This document shows, one piece after another, positions 1-6,000 of a DNA stretch of 64,000 nucleotides. The first letter of the stretch is position 1; the number at the start of each line of letters is the position of its first letter. The position numbers were made by a program. Source of the DNA: Escherichia coli (GTDB lineage Bacteria > Pseudomonadota > Gammaproteobacteria > Enterobacterales > Enterobacteriaceae); the NCBI RefSeq assembly GCF_050920415.1, contig NZ_CP169310.1; one strand, 5' to 3'.

Positions 1-3000
1 GTTTAAAGTCTTCAGAAACGTTCAGGAACTGTTTTGCCAGGTCGTCCTGCGAAATAAAGCCGTATGATAACGGGCGAACACTGCCCTGTTTCGGGTCTAC
101 CAGCATCATGGCCGGGAAATATTTCACGCCGAGGCGCTGCGCCTGCCCCTGGTCAGTCCGGGAATCCGGCAACAGCGGATTAATCACGCCATCCACGGAA
201 ACGGGAATAACACTCAGACCATACGTATCCCGGAAGCCATTAATGACCTGCGCCAGTTGCCCGTCGATGGGGTCCTGCCCACGGTAAAAAAACATGATGC
301 CGTAATGCTCTGCCAGTCTGGCAATGGCCTGTCGCTGCTGCGCCTGGTCTGCCGCCAGCTGGTTCCGTACCGTACCGTTGTAATGGCTGTACTGCAGGTT
401 ATAGTCCAGTTCGGGATGTGCCAGCATGGCCTTTCTGGCACTCATGGTGAAAAGCCCGGCCTGCTGAGTCCAGTAATTCTGCAGCCGGAAATATTTCACA
501 AAATTATCCACGCCGGGATACAGAATGGCTTCGTACAGCGCCCGCTTTGTTGCCGTCTGCAGCGCAGTCAGTTTCTGCATAATATCCGGCTCCTGACGGG
601 GAGCCGCAGGGACTGGTTTATTTTCTTTTTTCTTCGGATTTATTTTCTCGTTATACCACTGCCAGCCTGCATCTTTTCCTGACGCCGGAAAAATAAAGCA
701 GCAGAGTAACAGTGGCAGTAATGCTTTATTCATCTTCATTCCTTTCATCACTTTTTCTTTCATCAGGTTTCTGCAGGTCAGCCAGTGCAGAAAAACAAAA
801 ATACAGAATAAACAGGAGCTCACCGGAGTAAAGAATAACGAAAGCAGCAGCAAGTATCCCGCCCACCGTGGTTTCTTTTACCGTATTCCATGACCAGATA
901 ATTACCGGGGAAATGACAATTGCTGTAATAACAAGCCGGATAAGAAAATCAACAAGACGATTCGACGTGAATATGACTTTCATTATTTTCCCGACCTTAC
1001 TGCCCCACCTGTTTCAGCTGACCGGCAATCTGCTCTTTCACTTTTTCGGTCAGCGCACCATTATCCGGGATTTTCTGGTTATTCATCAGGTCTTCGTAGA
1101 AGTTAGTGAAGTCCAGCTGGTCGAACTTAATACGCTGCAGTTCATCCACGGTGATCCCCCGGCAGTCAGGACTTTTTGCGCTGCCAAAACCAATACGCAA
1201 CTGTCCGTTGCGCCCCTGCTGCTGGACTATCTGCGCCAGCTTCGAATCAAACTGGCAGTAACTGCGCTTTTTCTGCAGACAGACACCCAGCACTTTCCGG
1301 GAGCAGAACTCACCCACACTCACCGTCAGTTTGTTGTCCTTCGCCTTTCCCAGCGCCTTTTCTTCACTGTTACATTCAGCCAGCCCCACATCCTGCCCCC
1401 AGCCGCCATCCTTACAGCAGTTACTGAAGCCGGCTGCAGCCTTACGGCAGAATTTCGCCTCACCGGTAAAAGCCCGGACATCCACACCATTCAGGGCGGC
1501 AACATCCTTACCTGCGGCGGCAAGCGCAGCCAGTTGTGAGACGGCTTCACCAAAATCACTGCTTTTTCCGCTCTGCGCCTTATCACATTCACCATCGAGA
1601 CAGAAGACATCACCACCACAAACCATCACTTTCCCGGATGTTCTGGACTCGCAGGAGTACGTGGCATACTCATGCAGACAGGCTCCCTCATCGGAATAAA
1701 ACGCGCACTGACGTGAGGCCAGCGTACAGGCCGGATTATCAACATATTTCTGACAGGTGCCGTTATCTGCCGACTGCGTGACATATTTATCCCGGTATGC
1801 CCAGCACGCCTGTGTGATGCTCCAGGGTTTACCTTCCATCACACCTGTTTTCGTACCACCCGGCTCTGAACACTCAGTGCCTTTCAGCACGCCATCCGCT
1901 TTATTAAACGGACAACTCTCCACCCACTCCACTCGTGGAACCCATTCTTTATCACGGACCTTCATCCTGAGTTTCAGCGTAAAGGTGGAGGCGCCGCTGG
2001 CCAGTTTCTCATAAACCTGTTGGTCACCGTTCCCGCCAGAAAGGCAGTTACCGTTAGCAGTACAGCCACTGCCGGTCAGTACCTGCCCCTGTGTCACCTG
2101 CAAACCTGTTGCCCCGGACAGAGGGAAAGTCCCCGACTGCCCGTTTGCCAGGCCAACATTGAACGTTGAATTCATGAAGGTATAACGAGAGTTCAGGAAG
2201 AAAAAAGCGGCGTATACAGACAATGATGCACTTTCCACTGTACCGGTTACCGGAGCCGTGACACTGAACGCCAGTTTCAGCCCGTTCATACTGAACCGGA
2301 ACTGTGAGTGCGGTATCGTCACCTCACGATATTCATCCGTGTATTTCCAGTCCCCTGTGATACTGGCGGTTCTGGAACAATATTCCTCAACCATCGTATC
2401 CCGCTCACAGGTATAGTTGGTGAATTCACTGCGGTTTATCTGTTGCGCACTGCACTGCTGTCCGGTGTTTCCCACGATGCTGTCAGCCCGGTTCACCACA
2501 TCCCTGCCGGTCTGAATAAACGGCGCATCCGGTGACAGAATGTCTTTCGGCTTGTTCATGAAGGATTCTGTGATGGTTTTGCCGGTTTCACTGGTTGCCC
2601 ATTGTGTGGTGCCGTTATTTTTCAGACCGCCATCCCCGTCGGCAGTCACCCCACCGTAATACTGCGTCTCATCCGGGTTCGCGTTATACCCCGGGATACT
2701 CTCCTGCGGATTAAAATTCTGAATACTGCCAATACCCTGCCCCTGGATCTGACGGGCAAAATCGGAACCTGCCCGGTAATCACTGTTGCTGTCTGCAAAC
2801 ACAGAAAAGCTCAGAAAAAAAACAATTGCACAAATATTGCACGGTTTTCCGGAGTCATTAAAATTCAGAGACCTGAAAAAGGTATTTATATTTTCTTTCA
2901 TAATCTGAACCAAATGGAGAATGAAGTGATGTCATCTCAACTTCAGAACTGTGTTGATTGTGGTAAAGCATTAAGTCGAACAGCCACAACATGCGGGAAT

Positions 3001-6000
3001 TGCAGCTCAACGGACCCTTTTGGAAAAAAACGCCGCAACGATCGCTTGCATCAATGGTTTGCCGGGCTGTTTATTACGGCTACTATTATTGCTGGCGGGC
3101 TATGGTACATGGGAATTCTTGATGTTCCGGGATTATTACTCAGATAACGATTTCAGTAACGATATCAGTGTCCTGAAATCAGCACATAACGAGTGACGAC
3201 AGTACCGGTTATACCAGTAATAAGGGGCTTCGGGCTGAAGCCTGAAACAGAGCTGAAACTCGCTGTTAAAAGCCCCCTTCACCGACCATCCCCATGCCAG
3301 ACGTGGTATTGCTGATTCAGCATCCTGCCGCAGTCGCCGTTCAAGAAGGGCAGCCATTTTTACCGGACAGACAAAGGCAATATAAGGCGGCAGCTTTGTA
3401 ACAGGAAAACCATGCCCCTGACAGGACGCATATGTACGGAATCCGTGAACGTTCATCGCGGCCACAAGTGCACGGATGTCCGGGTCAATCCGGTAATAGC
3501 CTGCTGGAAAACTCATTGCGACTTATCCCCGGTGCCGTCCAGCAGTCCCTGAGCCACCTGCCGGCAGTCTCCCGTGGCGGCCACTTTTTCCAGCGCCTGC
3601 CTGACGCGCAGATTTCCCCGGATGATGTCGTGCCCCTGGCTGCAGAACACCACCAGGGCCGGCACGCTGCGGATGCCGTACTGTGAAAACAACGTCGGGT
3701 CGATCTGAACACCATCGGTCGCGCCATCTTTTACCAGAGACAACACGGCTTCAGCGGTAGTCTTCAGGTCATTGTTCACCATGCCCCGCAGTGTGGCCGG
3801 AATACCGTAGTGCCCGGTTTCGCTCAGCATCTGTTTCAGCCCCTCTTCGGGTATGGAAAACGATACAAAATACACGGCCCCCTGTTGTGGTTTGTCTTTC
3901 TGAGCAGCCTGCTGCTTACGGACCAGTTCATCGAGAAACTGGTTATCGGAATGCTGAAGGGGATTCGCCCTGACCTGCTGTTCTGCCCATGCCTGCAGTT
4001 GTGTGTCCGGCTTTTCACGTAACTGCTGACTCAGTGTTTCCTGCTGCTTCAGGAACCGGCGGTTTTCTGGCGTATTCACGTTTTCCGAAGCGTGGGCAGA
4101 AATAAACAGTCCTGCTGTCAGGGAAAAAAGTACAAATATTTTACGGCTCATATCATCTCCCGGCATAGTGATATAATTTAATTACCGGCGCACTTTTCTT
4201 TCAATCTTTCAGACAGAGCATATAACTCATCCATTTCTTCCTGAGTAATGCATTTTCTGCTGACAGTAATCTACACCGTAGCCACGGCGGTATCTCTGTT
4301 CAGAATAATATCATCACCGTAATTTTTTAATGACAGATGGTCTCCCTCTCTCCGGGCCTGGTATATTTTTTTCCGGTGGATACTCAGACAATTCGTTCTC
4401 CTACCTGTCTTTAGATTTATCATTACAATTATATTCAGACATAGTGCTGATGAATTCCCGAAATCTTCTGTCAATAAACTCCAGTCGATTCAGTATATCC
4501 TCTGATTTCCTGACATCTTCAATATCTGTAAGCCGACGGCACTCCAGCAGAGGATAATATGCCCCACCATTTTCAGTCCATTGTCTGACCACATCAAAAG
4601 CACTCACCTTTTCCAGCAGGGAGAAAAATCGCTCCTCACTGATAAAAATTTCTTTTTCTTTATTACTTATCTTTCGTAAAAATGATAAAAAACTCATAAC
4701 ACACCTTGATTTATATTGTACACATGCACACACGGTTATATTTATGAGAACCGCCAGACTCATTTCCTGCGCTTAACAGACATAAACTTATCTGACGAAA
4801 GATACGAGAAAACAACGCAGATTGTTGATTAGCTTCTTTCTCTGTTTATCTTTTTTCTGAGTCTGGCGGCAATTAATTGCCAGTCTTCTCTTTCACTCCG
4901 GCTTACAGCACTTTCTCTTGCGTAAACATGCATAGTGATTTTATTTTTCACTTTCATCCTTCACCTCTTTATTTACAGGAACACACAGTTACGTTTACGC
5001 CACATCAGGTAGCCGAAATTTTTCTTTGTGTTGGGCGGATTTTTTCCCGTCTCCCAGCGCATCACACTGCGCCCGAACGGATGGCACTGCCCGCTGTCCG
5101 GGTACATGTTCACCATCTGGTAACGCCAGCGTTCTTTGGGAAGTATGGGAGACGGATATTCGTTACAGACGGCACTGTCCTTACCGATGGTTTCCATAAT
5201 CATGCCCTGGCGGTGGAGCTTAAATGCCATCCGCTCACTGACCAGCAGGGAGGACTGCAGCGGGCTGGATTCATTGCTCACCCAGCCATTAAACGGATAC
5301 ATACTGCCCTGCGAACCGGCACACCAGAACAGAATATCCAGAGGTTTATTAAAGGCGCTGGCAATCGCATCAGCTGCACAGGCACCCTGCGCTATCGGGT
5401 TGGCAAAAATAACCGCTTCCGGATTGAGAATGGTGGTCAGACTGCTGTCCGTCCATGTGGGATCGATTTCGGAAAGATACGCGATATCCAGGTCACCACC
5501 TTCCAGACAGCCCAGCGATGTGATGATATTCAGCCAGTACGTCAGCGGGTATTTGTACCAGTGCACGTGATAGAACGCCCCGTTCACCTGTTTATCTTCT
5601 TTTCTTGCCGTCCCCTGTGCCGTTTTCCCGAATTCCGGCAGACTGAACCCCAGATTAACCATGCATCCCGGTGAGCGGGTGACATCCGTCAGGGCCATCG
5701 GCTCCCAGTAACCAATAGCCAGCCCGATACGTTTAAAAACAGGGGGAGGCGCCGGGCAGAACTGGATCGGCATTGACGGGTTTGCGGTATCCGGCACCTT
5801 CCCCTGGCTCACTTTTGTGCTGCCCAACGAGAGAGGGAAAATGCAGCTCCAGCAAATATCCGTGATCGGGTTAACAAACCGCCCCTCACAGGCAGCGTCC
5901 GCTGACGCTACGGGAACATGGCCAGTCAGCAGCAAAACCACACACAACCACATACACCGTTTCATTTCCCTCCCTCCCCGACCGGAATAAATTCCACCTT

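Follow-up and report, generated by a model that had tools for sequence, protein, structure and literature searches.

What lies between trbC and traN in an F-like transfer operon in which these two genes do not meet? In the F plasmid trbC overlaps traN directly, with no gene between, and R100 likewise carries no insert at this position. In the stretch of Escherichia coli DNA analysed here (64,000 nucleotides of contig NZ_CP169310.1, "the window"), the two genes are about 600 bp apart, as a preliminary description made from the sequence alone had stated; traN starts at 2901 (the ATG chosen by the Prokaryotic Genome Annotation Pipeline, PGAP) or at 2913 (a TTG). At 100% identity the window matches an IncF plasmid of E. 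coli, pCFSAN004180G (225 kb, IncFIA/FIB), as well as four plasmids related to it. Two short open reading frames (ORFs) fill the insert: gene X, which encodes 126 residues on the strand of the tra operon, and a small gene for 72 residues on the opposite strand, convergent to X. We find that both are real genes and that they form a conserved mobile pair, and we tentatively propose that X is a thiol-dependent enzyme whose target is nucleic acid or a nucleotide and that the small protein is its membrane partner.

As both ORFs are short, and the small one is unannotated in many RefSeq records, one or both could be chance frames without a product. This explanation is effectively refuted, and we give it practically no weight. 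When the window copies are compared with the diverged copies L024 and L026 from another F-type system, the ratio of nonsynonymous to synonymous substitution rates (dN/dS) is 0.18 for X and, at about 72-76% amino acid identity, 0.11-0.19 for the small protein, which indicates purifying selection on both. Stop codons, one to six per frame, close the five alternative frames of the small ORF, and a Shine-Dalgarno-like GGAG or GAGG is found 6-9 nt before its ATG in all six diverged copies. Both proteins have distant homologues, the pair is syntenic, and a fold is confidently predicted for X. RefSeq calls both of them "hypothetical protein". The stop codon of trbC overlaps the start codon of X as ATGA, and the same overlap is annotated in pO26_2, in pKPC2_020019 and in a Raoultella contig; this makes it plausible that translation of X is coupled to that of trbC, as the preliminary description had held for this ORF.

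Gene X belongs to a large family. By tblastn it is encoded on 929 plasmids of PLSDB, where it is always labelled "hypothetical" and where 795 of the plasmids (86%) are predicted to be conjugative. About 700 of them carry X at 80% identity or more; these are F-like plasmids of the E. coli, Shigella, Salmonella and Klebsiella types, and X always follows trbC directly. A further 215 or so are more distant. Searching 1.84 billion representative proteins with a profile gave 439 clusters at E<=1e-3 (194 at E<=1e-10), with the motif SC(Q/E)GH in nearly all of them. The relatives in the AlphaFold database are all "uncharacterized". No copy was found by tblastn in 50,697 phage genomes, and distant members of the family obtain only weak PHROG matches to which no function is assigned. 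Searches of X and of the small protein against NCBIfam, Pfam and PHROGs gave nothing usable, and no named Tra protein or NCBIfam model was matched, in agreement with the earlier statement that neither protein is a recognised tra product. With no NCBIfam match, and being absent from F and R100, X is not a core gene of the F-type type IV secretion system (T4SS), and its absence from these two plasmids implies that it is dispensable for F-type transfer.

Of 17 distinct contexts of X that were inspected, 14 lie within or adjoin transfer or establishment genes, while the remaining three are short metagenome contigs without a recognisable transfer gene. The family is thus found almost only in conjugation (T4SS-associated) gene clusters, in a variety of positions. 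The simplest arrangement is that of Klebsiella plasmid pKPC2_020019 and the Raoultella contig, where X is coupled on both sides in the order trbC-X-traN with nothing extra. Elsewhere X is located upstream of traH (including tandem X genes before traH), is fused and coupled to traH (Burkholderia glumae), or stands between traH and traG (L024-L026) or, in Pantoea, between a traF-like and a trbB-like gene. VirB-type clusters have X between virB11 and virD4, adjoining LPD7/ArdcN polyvalent proteins. On a Vibrio plasmid X occurs near a conjugative TraF signal peptidase and a lytic transglycosylase; in Serratia it adjoins a PFL_4706-type ATPase of an ICE (integrative and conjugative element); in K. 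michiganensis it is near a MOBH relaxase, UvrD, ArdC and an N6 methyltransferase. One element combines X with a relaxase, SLT, VirB2/3, a ParB-like gene and RadC/ART-PolyVal polyvalent proteins. In another case X follows an integrase gene, to which it is coupled, with SSB, AcaB and SNF2 nearby, and a weakly informative 2-kb contig has it adjoining a prepilin-type peptidase (Peptidase_A24). The X domain also occurs as tandem genes (L007, 5648-6405) and as two-domain polypeptides (P0053, P0100, P0157, P0183, P0165) in other conjugative elements, which hints at a dimeric working unit. The VirB-type homologues P0082, P0097, P0099, P0121, P0135 and P0137 share a C-terminal extension of about 100 aa (...KRI.R...F.TV.TF...H...).

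The small gene is rarer: it was found in 120 plasmids. Its homologues, 41-86% identical, have DPFG and W59 without exception, and C8, C11 and C25 are present in eight of eight. C22 is kept in seven of eight, the exception being the divergent single-member cluster P0192, and in all four of the most distant. Even at 41-47% identity (Serratia, Providencia and K. michiganensis types) the four Cys, DPFG, R35, N37, an LW pair and the hydrophobic helix are retained. AlphaFold2 predicts two short hairpin strands followed by a helix at residues 33-60. Since the basic segment KKRRNDR precedes the transmembrane helix, an N-in topology with a cytoplasmic zinc ribbon is suggested. The protein shares its plan, CxxC-x10-CxxC followed by a transmembrane helix, with short membrane zinc-ribbon proteins in Pfam, but similarity to these types (zinc_ribbon_2, DZR, DUF2116) stays below threshold (E 0.004-0.02) and there is no family-level match. 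With its DPFG, R-x-N and LW signature it is a narrow family, seen only beside X. PADLOC-DB v2 returned only a chance-level match (E 0.013). The preliminary description had made this ORF one residue too long (73 aa); its position, its GGAGA site, the paired CxxC motifs and the transmembrane helix had been recognised correctly, and so had its antisense orientation within the operon, for which artA, annotated in F, is a precedent. A perfect palindrome with a 6-bp stem, GGCTTCAGCCCGAAGCC, occurs inside X at 3226-3242, about 80 nt past the stop codon of the small gene, and is largely kept in L024 and L026; it could indicate the 3' end of a plus-strand transcript.

X and the small gene form a conserved mobile pair. 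X adjoins the small gene in every copy of the latter that was inspected (three PLSDB records and two metagenome-contig contexts), and the pair occupies at least five insertion sites: between trbC and traN, between traH and traG, between a trbB cluster and traH in Providencia, in the Serratia PFL_4706 ICE and in the MOBH region of K. michiganensis. In every pair X is on the tra strand. The convergent genes overlap at their 3' ends by 12 bp in the window, and overlaps of 15-86 bp occur in L024/L026, L003, L004 and L006. Only short, chance-level repeats were found when terminal repeats that might explain mobility of the cassette were looked for.

Comparison with the plasmid pO26_2 reveals what else may follow X. 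Its sequence is nearly identical to the window up to about codon 115 of X and then diverges completely, and for this reason we regard the site after X as a variable slot that holds the zinc-ribbon gene, an HNH endonuclease gene, or nothing. In the pO26_2-type order, trbC-X-HNH-traN, the HNH gene has the same place as the small gene, directly after X and before traN; as this junction exists in 541 plasmids, the site downstream of X is a recurrent position for cargo. The HNH gene differs from the small gene in that it codes for another protein, is read in the direction of the operon and does not disturb the normal TraN signal peptide. It encodes 140 aa (L018, 2898-3320), is coupled to traN and represents the most common F-like variant; its similarity to a retron-associated HNH model is weak and below threshold. 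A 641-bp query that runs from the 3' end of X through the HNH gene into the 5' end of traN is matched in part by about 3,000 plasmids, but only the 541 carry X with HNH, and about 120-130 carry X with the small ORF. On a Pantoea stewartii contig (L016, 2686-3018, minus strand) a 156-aa version of X is followed by a convergent, 3'-overlapping ORF of 110 aa that lacks a zinc ribbon and has about three hydrophobic helices, which may be another type of partner or may be spurious.

In the window, the DNA specific to the cassette extends beyond the small gene. Homology to L024/L026 reaches about 130 bp upstream of it, and the GC content of the segment is 35-45% (35% at 2800-3000) as compared to about 54% in the tra genes, as expected for acquired cargo. 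The cassette has also replaced the signal peptide of TraN: F-type TraN begins with MKRILPL..., while the leader in the window derives from an MKENIN... frame that opens in this upstream DNA, on the strand opposite to the small gene, and whose homologue starts within the L026 cassette. The signal peptide MKENINTFFRSLNFNDSGKPCNICAIVFFLSFSVFA is followed by a mature protein (DSNSDY...) that resumes exactly as in F, and a clear Shine-Dalgarno sequence is absent before its start. The view of the insert as non-canonical cargo thus holds in that it is real, of low GC content and not part of the core operon, and fails in that X is not unusual: it is found between trbC and traN in the roughly 700 plasmids mentioned above and is routinely annotated. 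The preliminary description had itself named the possibility that the ORFs are annotated, conserved parts of F-like tra operons; this turned out to be so for X, one half of the pair. The mobile pair and the resemblance of the larger gene to TYW3, discussed below, go beyond that description.

Which type of protein X might be is suggested by its conserved residues. Among 61 family sequences, G34 is present in all, C32 in 60, H35 in 59, S31 in 57 and T28 in 55. Together with Y45, W77 and D113 they make up an invariant set that we judge to be enzyme-like. The description of the protein as rich in Cys and His was misleading, and a metal cluster built from these residues was rejected, as of the five Cys only C32, along with H35 in the SCQGH motif, is kept by family members. 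The sequence has neither a signal peptide nor a transmembrane helix, and X is therefore presumed to be cytoplasmic. The AlphaFold2 model (mean predicted local distance difference test score, pLDDT, 80) has the topology helix-strand-strand-helix-strand-strand-helix.

When a profile of the 61 sequences was searched against all PDB sequences, the top matches were 2qg3 (E 0.028) and 2drv (E 0.04), with 1tlj also present. All are TYW3/Taw3 proteins (PF02676; structures 1TLJ, 2DRV, 2DVK, 2QG3), the S-adenosylmethionine (SAM)-dependent tRNA-yW N4-methyltransferases of archaea and eukaryotes, whereas X is bacterial and plasmid-borne. TYW3 is defined by an N-terminal Asp, the motif (S/T)xSSCxGR and a His, with the Asp, Cys and Arg being essential (PMC5311493, PMC2034487); the Arg that closes the motif is required for activity of yeast TYW3 (PMC5311493). 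The profile aligns as iD..I..LV..lN....T.aSCqGH against vD.dI..Ll..iN....T.SSCSGR of 2qg3 and 2drv. X thus has the motif core (S/T)-x-S-S-C-x-G in the form T28-Y-A-S31-C32-Q-G34, with the first Ser mostly replaced by Ala (Ser in 3 of 61), and in the HMMER alignments its D11 coincides with the Asp that binds SAM at the sulfonium (D25 in SsTaw3), a column with Asp in 44 and Glu in 15 of the 61 sequences. In the reverse direction the Pfam TYW3 model matches two of the 61 members at E<=1e-3 and seven at E<=0.1, the best of them at E 5.2e-5 over model positions 15-48 of 211. On the basis of these alignments we consider it rather likely that the motif region of X is truly homologous to TYW3. X is nevertheless not a member of the TYW3 family, and in the literature no paper was found that joins TYW3 with conjugation.

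Table 1. Positions of the features discussed, counted from the first nucleotide of the window.
Feature	Position	Strand	Basis
trbC, upstream core tra gene	3513-4166	-	NCBIfam PRK13730 TrbC, E 1.7e-123; PGAP annotation
traN, downstream core tra gene	997-2901	-	PGAP annotation; ORF
Gene X, 126-aa protein, TYW3-like family tied to conjugation gene clusters	3136-3516	-	RefSeq CDS WP_000009645.1
ATGA overlap of trbC TGA (3515-3513) and X ATG (3516-3514)	3513-3516	-	read from sequence
Signature codons T28-Y-A-S-C32-Q-G-H35 of X, aligned with TYW3 (S/T)xSSCxGR	3412-3435	-	conservation in 61 sequences; HMMER alignment to 2qg3, 2drv; motif census
Small gene, 72 aa: N-terminal zinc ribbon, DPFG motif, basic linker, one transmembrane helix; convergent to X	2929-3147	+	ORF; RefSeq WP_001364024.1
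GGAGA ribosome-binding site of small gene, 8 nt before ATG	2916-2920	+	sequence
Zinc-ribbon codons C8-x2-C11-x10-C22-x2-C25 (residues 8-25)	2950-3003	+	Cys conservation
Transmembrane helix, about residues 42-63, after KKRRNDR	3052-3117	+	sequence; AlphaFold2 helix 33-60; hydrophobic stretch kept in all homologues
Promoter-like site TTCAGA-17-TATATT inside traN 5' end; predicted transcription start near 2899 (traN start codon)	2864-2892	+	consensus scan, 1 site against 0.9 expected by chance
3'-end overlap (12 bp) of convergent X and small gene	3136-3147		coordinates
Cassette-specific low-GC DNA: small gene, upstream region, last ~10 codons of X, replacement TraN signal peptide	2798-3165		breakpoints against pO26_2 and F; L024/L026 homology
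TraN N-terminus MKENINTFF...SVFA followed by DSNSDY, cassette-derived signal peptide	2794-2901	-	translation; alignment with F and pO26_2

We propose that the insert is a two-gene accessory cassette within the F-like tra operon, in which X would be a thiol enzyme that uses C32 and H35 on nucleic acid or nucleotides and the small protein would be its membrane partner; this is a tentative reading that may well be correct. Being coupled to trbC, X would be made only along with the transfer machinery. Its N-terminal helix and its T-x-A-S-C-(Q/E)-G-H motif would be distantly homologous to the catalytic centre of TYW3, placed in a similar alpha/beta core without the SHS2 insert. For X we infer an enzymatic activity (or a specific binding function), probably of a dimer and based on the invariant Cys/His pair, and as its substrate a nucleic acid or nucleotide-type ligand handled in conjugation, for example the transferred strand or RNA; binding of X by the small protein and an antisense effect belong to the same reading. 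The role of X would be in plasmid establishment, or in conflict with functions of the recipient or of phages, rather than in pilus assembly. The small gene would be transcribed convergently from its own promoter and yield an inner-membrane protein with a cytoplasmic zinc ribbon, which most likely binds X, thereby localising or modulating it at the membrane. The transcript of the small gene, being antisense to the X-traN intergenic region and to the start of traN, may also lower TraN synthesis. Of the functions that had been suggested at the outset, entry exclusion by X is unlikely, X being a soluble cytoplasmic protein, while an anti-defence role of the pair is possible.

Several observations weigh against this proposal. 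The Arg of the TYW3 motif is His in 59 of the 61 sequences and Arg in a single one. No conserved His besides H35 exists in the family, so that the TYW3 His (H73 in SsTaw3, at the end of a strand of the RAGNYA domain) has no clear equivalent; the closest invariant polar residue, Y45, opens the following strand and is replaced by His in only 2 of 61 sequences. TYW3 proteins consist of an N-terminal extension, a RAGNYA domain and an SHS2-like insert and have about 190-210 aa; at 126 aa, and without the SHS2 "roof", X does not conform to this architecture, and the sequence similarity is confined to about 34-45 residues. The window protein itself has no match in Pfam even at E<=10, and a Foldseek search of its model against PDB gave nothing significant and did not recover TYW3. 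Enterobacteria are not known to make wyosine, and bacteria have no known wyosine substrate, so the canonical substrate of TYW3 would be absent from the hosts of X. Binding of the two proteins lacks Rosetta-stone support, because no fusion of X to a zinc ribbon was found and transmembrane segments are rare (4 of 188 homologues). The idea that the small gene has a strong promoter was rejected, since a single consensus match equals the chance expectation; the -10 hexamer and the position of this site are retained in L026. Finally, the position of X changes from one operon to another, in agreement with hitch-hiking cargo, whatever its function.

X might instead be a non-catalytic adaptor of the secretion machine that docks, for example, on its cytoplasmic ATPases or the coupling protein, with the motif as a binding surface and the small protein as a membrane receptor. 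Translational coupling of X between VirB11 and VirD4, to traH in Burkholderia, and to trbC and traN in Klebsiella would be in line with such a role, as would the few homologues with transmembrane segments of their own. X, however, has no constant neighbour across systems, is missing from F, from R100 and from the majority of F-like plasmids, and is also met beyond the T4SS operon, surrounded by establishment genes. The invariant set of Cys, His, Asp, Ser and Thr is more typical of catalysis, and we regard the adaptor as unlikely. Somewhat less probable still is a selfish addiction or defence module, expressed together with the pilus and directed, for instance, against pilus-specific phages, in which the small protein (or the HNH or multi-transmembrane protein) is the toxic effector and X a regulator, sensor or antitoxin. 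What speaks for it is the constancy of X in front of a changing partner (the zinc-ribbon protein, the weakly retron-HNH-like protein of 541 plasmids, the convergent ORF with three helices in Pantoea); moreover, the small gene has never been seen without X while X is often alone, which is the pattern of toxin and antitoxin, and the convergent overlap recalls some antisense-controlled toxins. Yet the solitary copies of X are tightly coupled in T4SS operons. X matched none of the anti-phage defence models of PADLOC-DB v2, NCBIfam and Pfam contain no toxin-antitoxin family matching X or the small protein, and library scans revealed no homology of X to known anti-restriction or anti-defence families. 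With the HNH gene being co-directional, the slot may be a mere hot spot for insertion; a zinc-ribbon membrane protein would be atypical as a pore-forming toxin, and the Pantoea ORF is only putative.

In a speculative variant, which we hold to be quite improbable, X and its variable follower (zinc-ribbon membrane protein, multi-transmembrane protein or HNH endonuclease) would constitute an unrecognised conflict system timed to conjugation, in which a TYW3-like thiol enzyme, produced only along with the pilus and the T4SS, modifies or senses nucleic acid and acts via interchangeable effectors. Such a system might shield piliated donors from pilus-specific phages or disarm the defences of the recipient. 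Very improbable, finally, is that the plus-strand element serves mainly as an antisense RNA controlling traN (and X), its protein being secondary or dispensable. The predicted start of the transcript near the traN start codon, its complementarity to the entire X-traN intergenic region, the lack of an obvious Shine-Dalgarno sequence for traN and the precedent of artA, annotated opposite the F tra operon, would all suit an RNA regulator. However, constraint acts on the protein, as is evident from its dN/dS, from the persistence of its Cys, DPFG and transmembrane helix down to 41% identity and from its conserved ribosome-binding site, and the pair keeps its form where the gene downstream is traG, traH or not a tra gene at all.

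Like artA of F, the small gene lies opposite a long tra transcript, and artA is not required for transfer either. There is, however, no sequence relationship; artA is located in the trbA-traQ region and has no convergent partner, whereas the small gene moves together with X among unrelated places in operons and codes for a conserved zinc-ribbon protein anchored in the membrane. X resembles the cargo genes that serve establishment and anti-defence in conjugative elements (ArdC, orphan N6 methyltransferases, SSB, ParB-like and polyvalent proteins) in being a small, non-essential gene confined almost entirely to such elements, and in several elements it is found among these very genes. In F-like plasmids, on the other hand, it is located not in the leading region but deep in the part of the tra operon that is devoted to pilus assembly.

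The remainder of the operon contains a second irregularity. Positions 1-9600 of the window are an F-like tra operon on the minus strand with the order trbE, traN, the insert described here, trbC, another insert of about 800 bp, traU, traW, trbI and traC. This second insert (4167-4972, GC 35-40%), between traU and trbC, corresponds to a gap of 9 bp in F. It includes an unannotated minus-strand ORF of 120 aa (4401-4763) without a family match; parts of it recur in 526 plasmids, in which two hypothetical proteins have been annotated, and R100 has a 101-aa hypothetical gene in this slot. A scan of positions 2000-5200 against Rfam gave no match.

The sequences of both genes have been present in databases as "hypothetical protein". 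What appears to be new is the recognition of a large family in T4SS gene clusters, of its TYW3-like motif and fold and of its conserved convergent partner; no paper on an ORF between trbC and traN was found in the literature, and a comparative study of F plasmids surveyed only 36 named tra genes.

In E. coli and Klebsiella, resistance and virulence genes are carried mainly by F-like plasmids. A family that has been neither named nor studied resides in the transfer operons of some 900 sequenced plasmids, KPC plasmids among them, and it recurs in VirB-type and ICE-type systems. TraN sets mating-pair specificity; a signal peptide swapped by the cassette, together with a predicted antisense transcript across the start of traN, could thus affect transfer efficiency and host range. 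We consider the pair a solid and testable lead, with functions for X and the small gene that we infer. If X is indeed an enzyme related to TYW3, a class described so far in archaea and eukaryotes would extend to bacteria, and X would be a candidate for a nucleic-acid modification that is coupled to mating.

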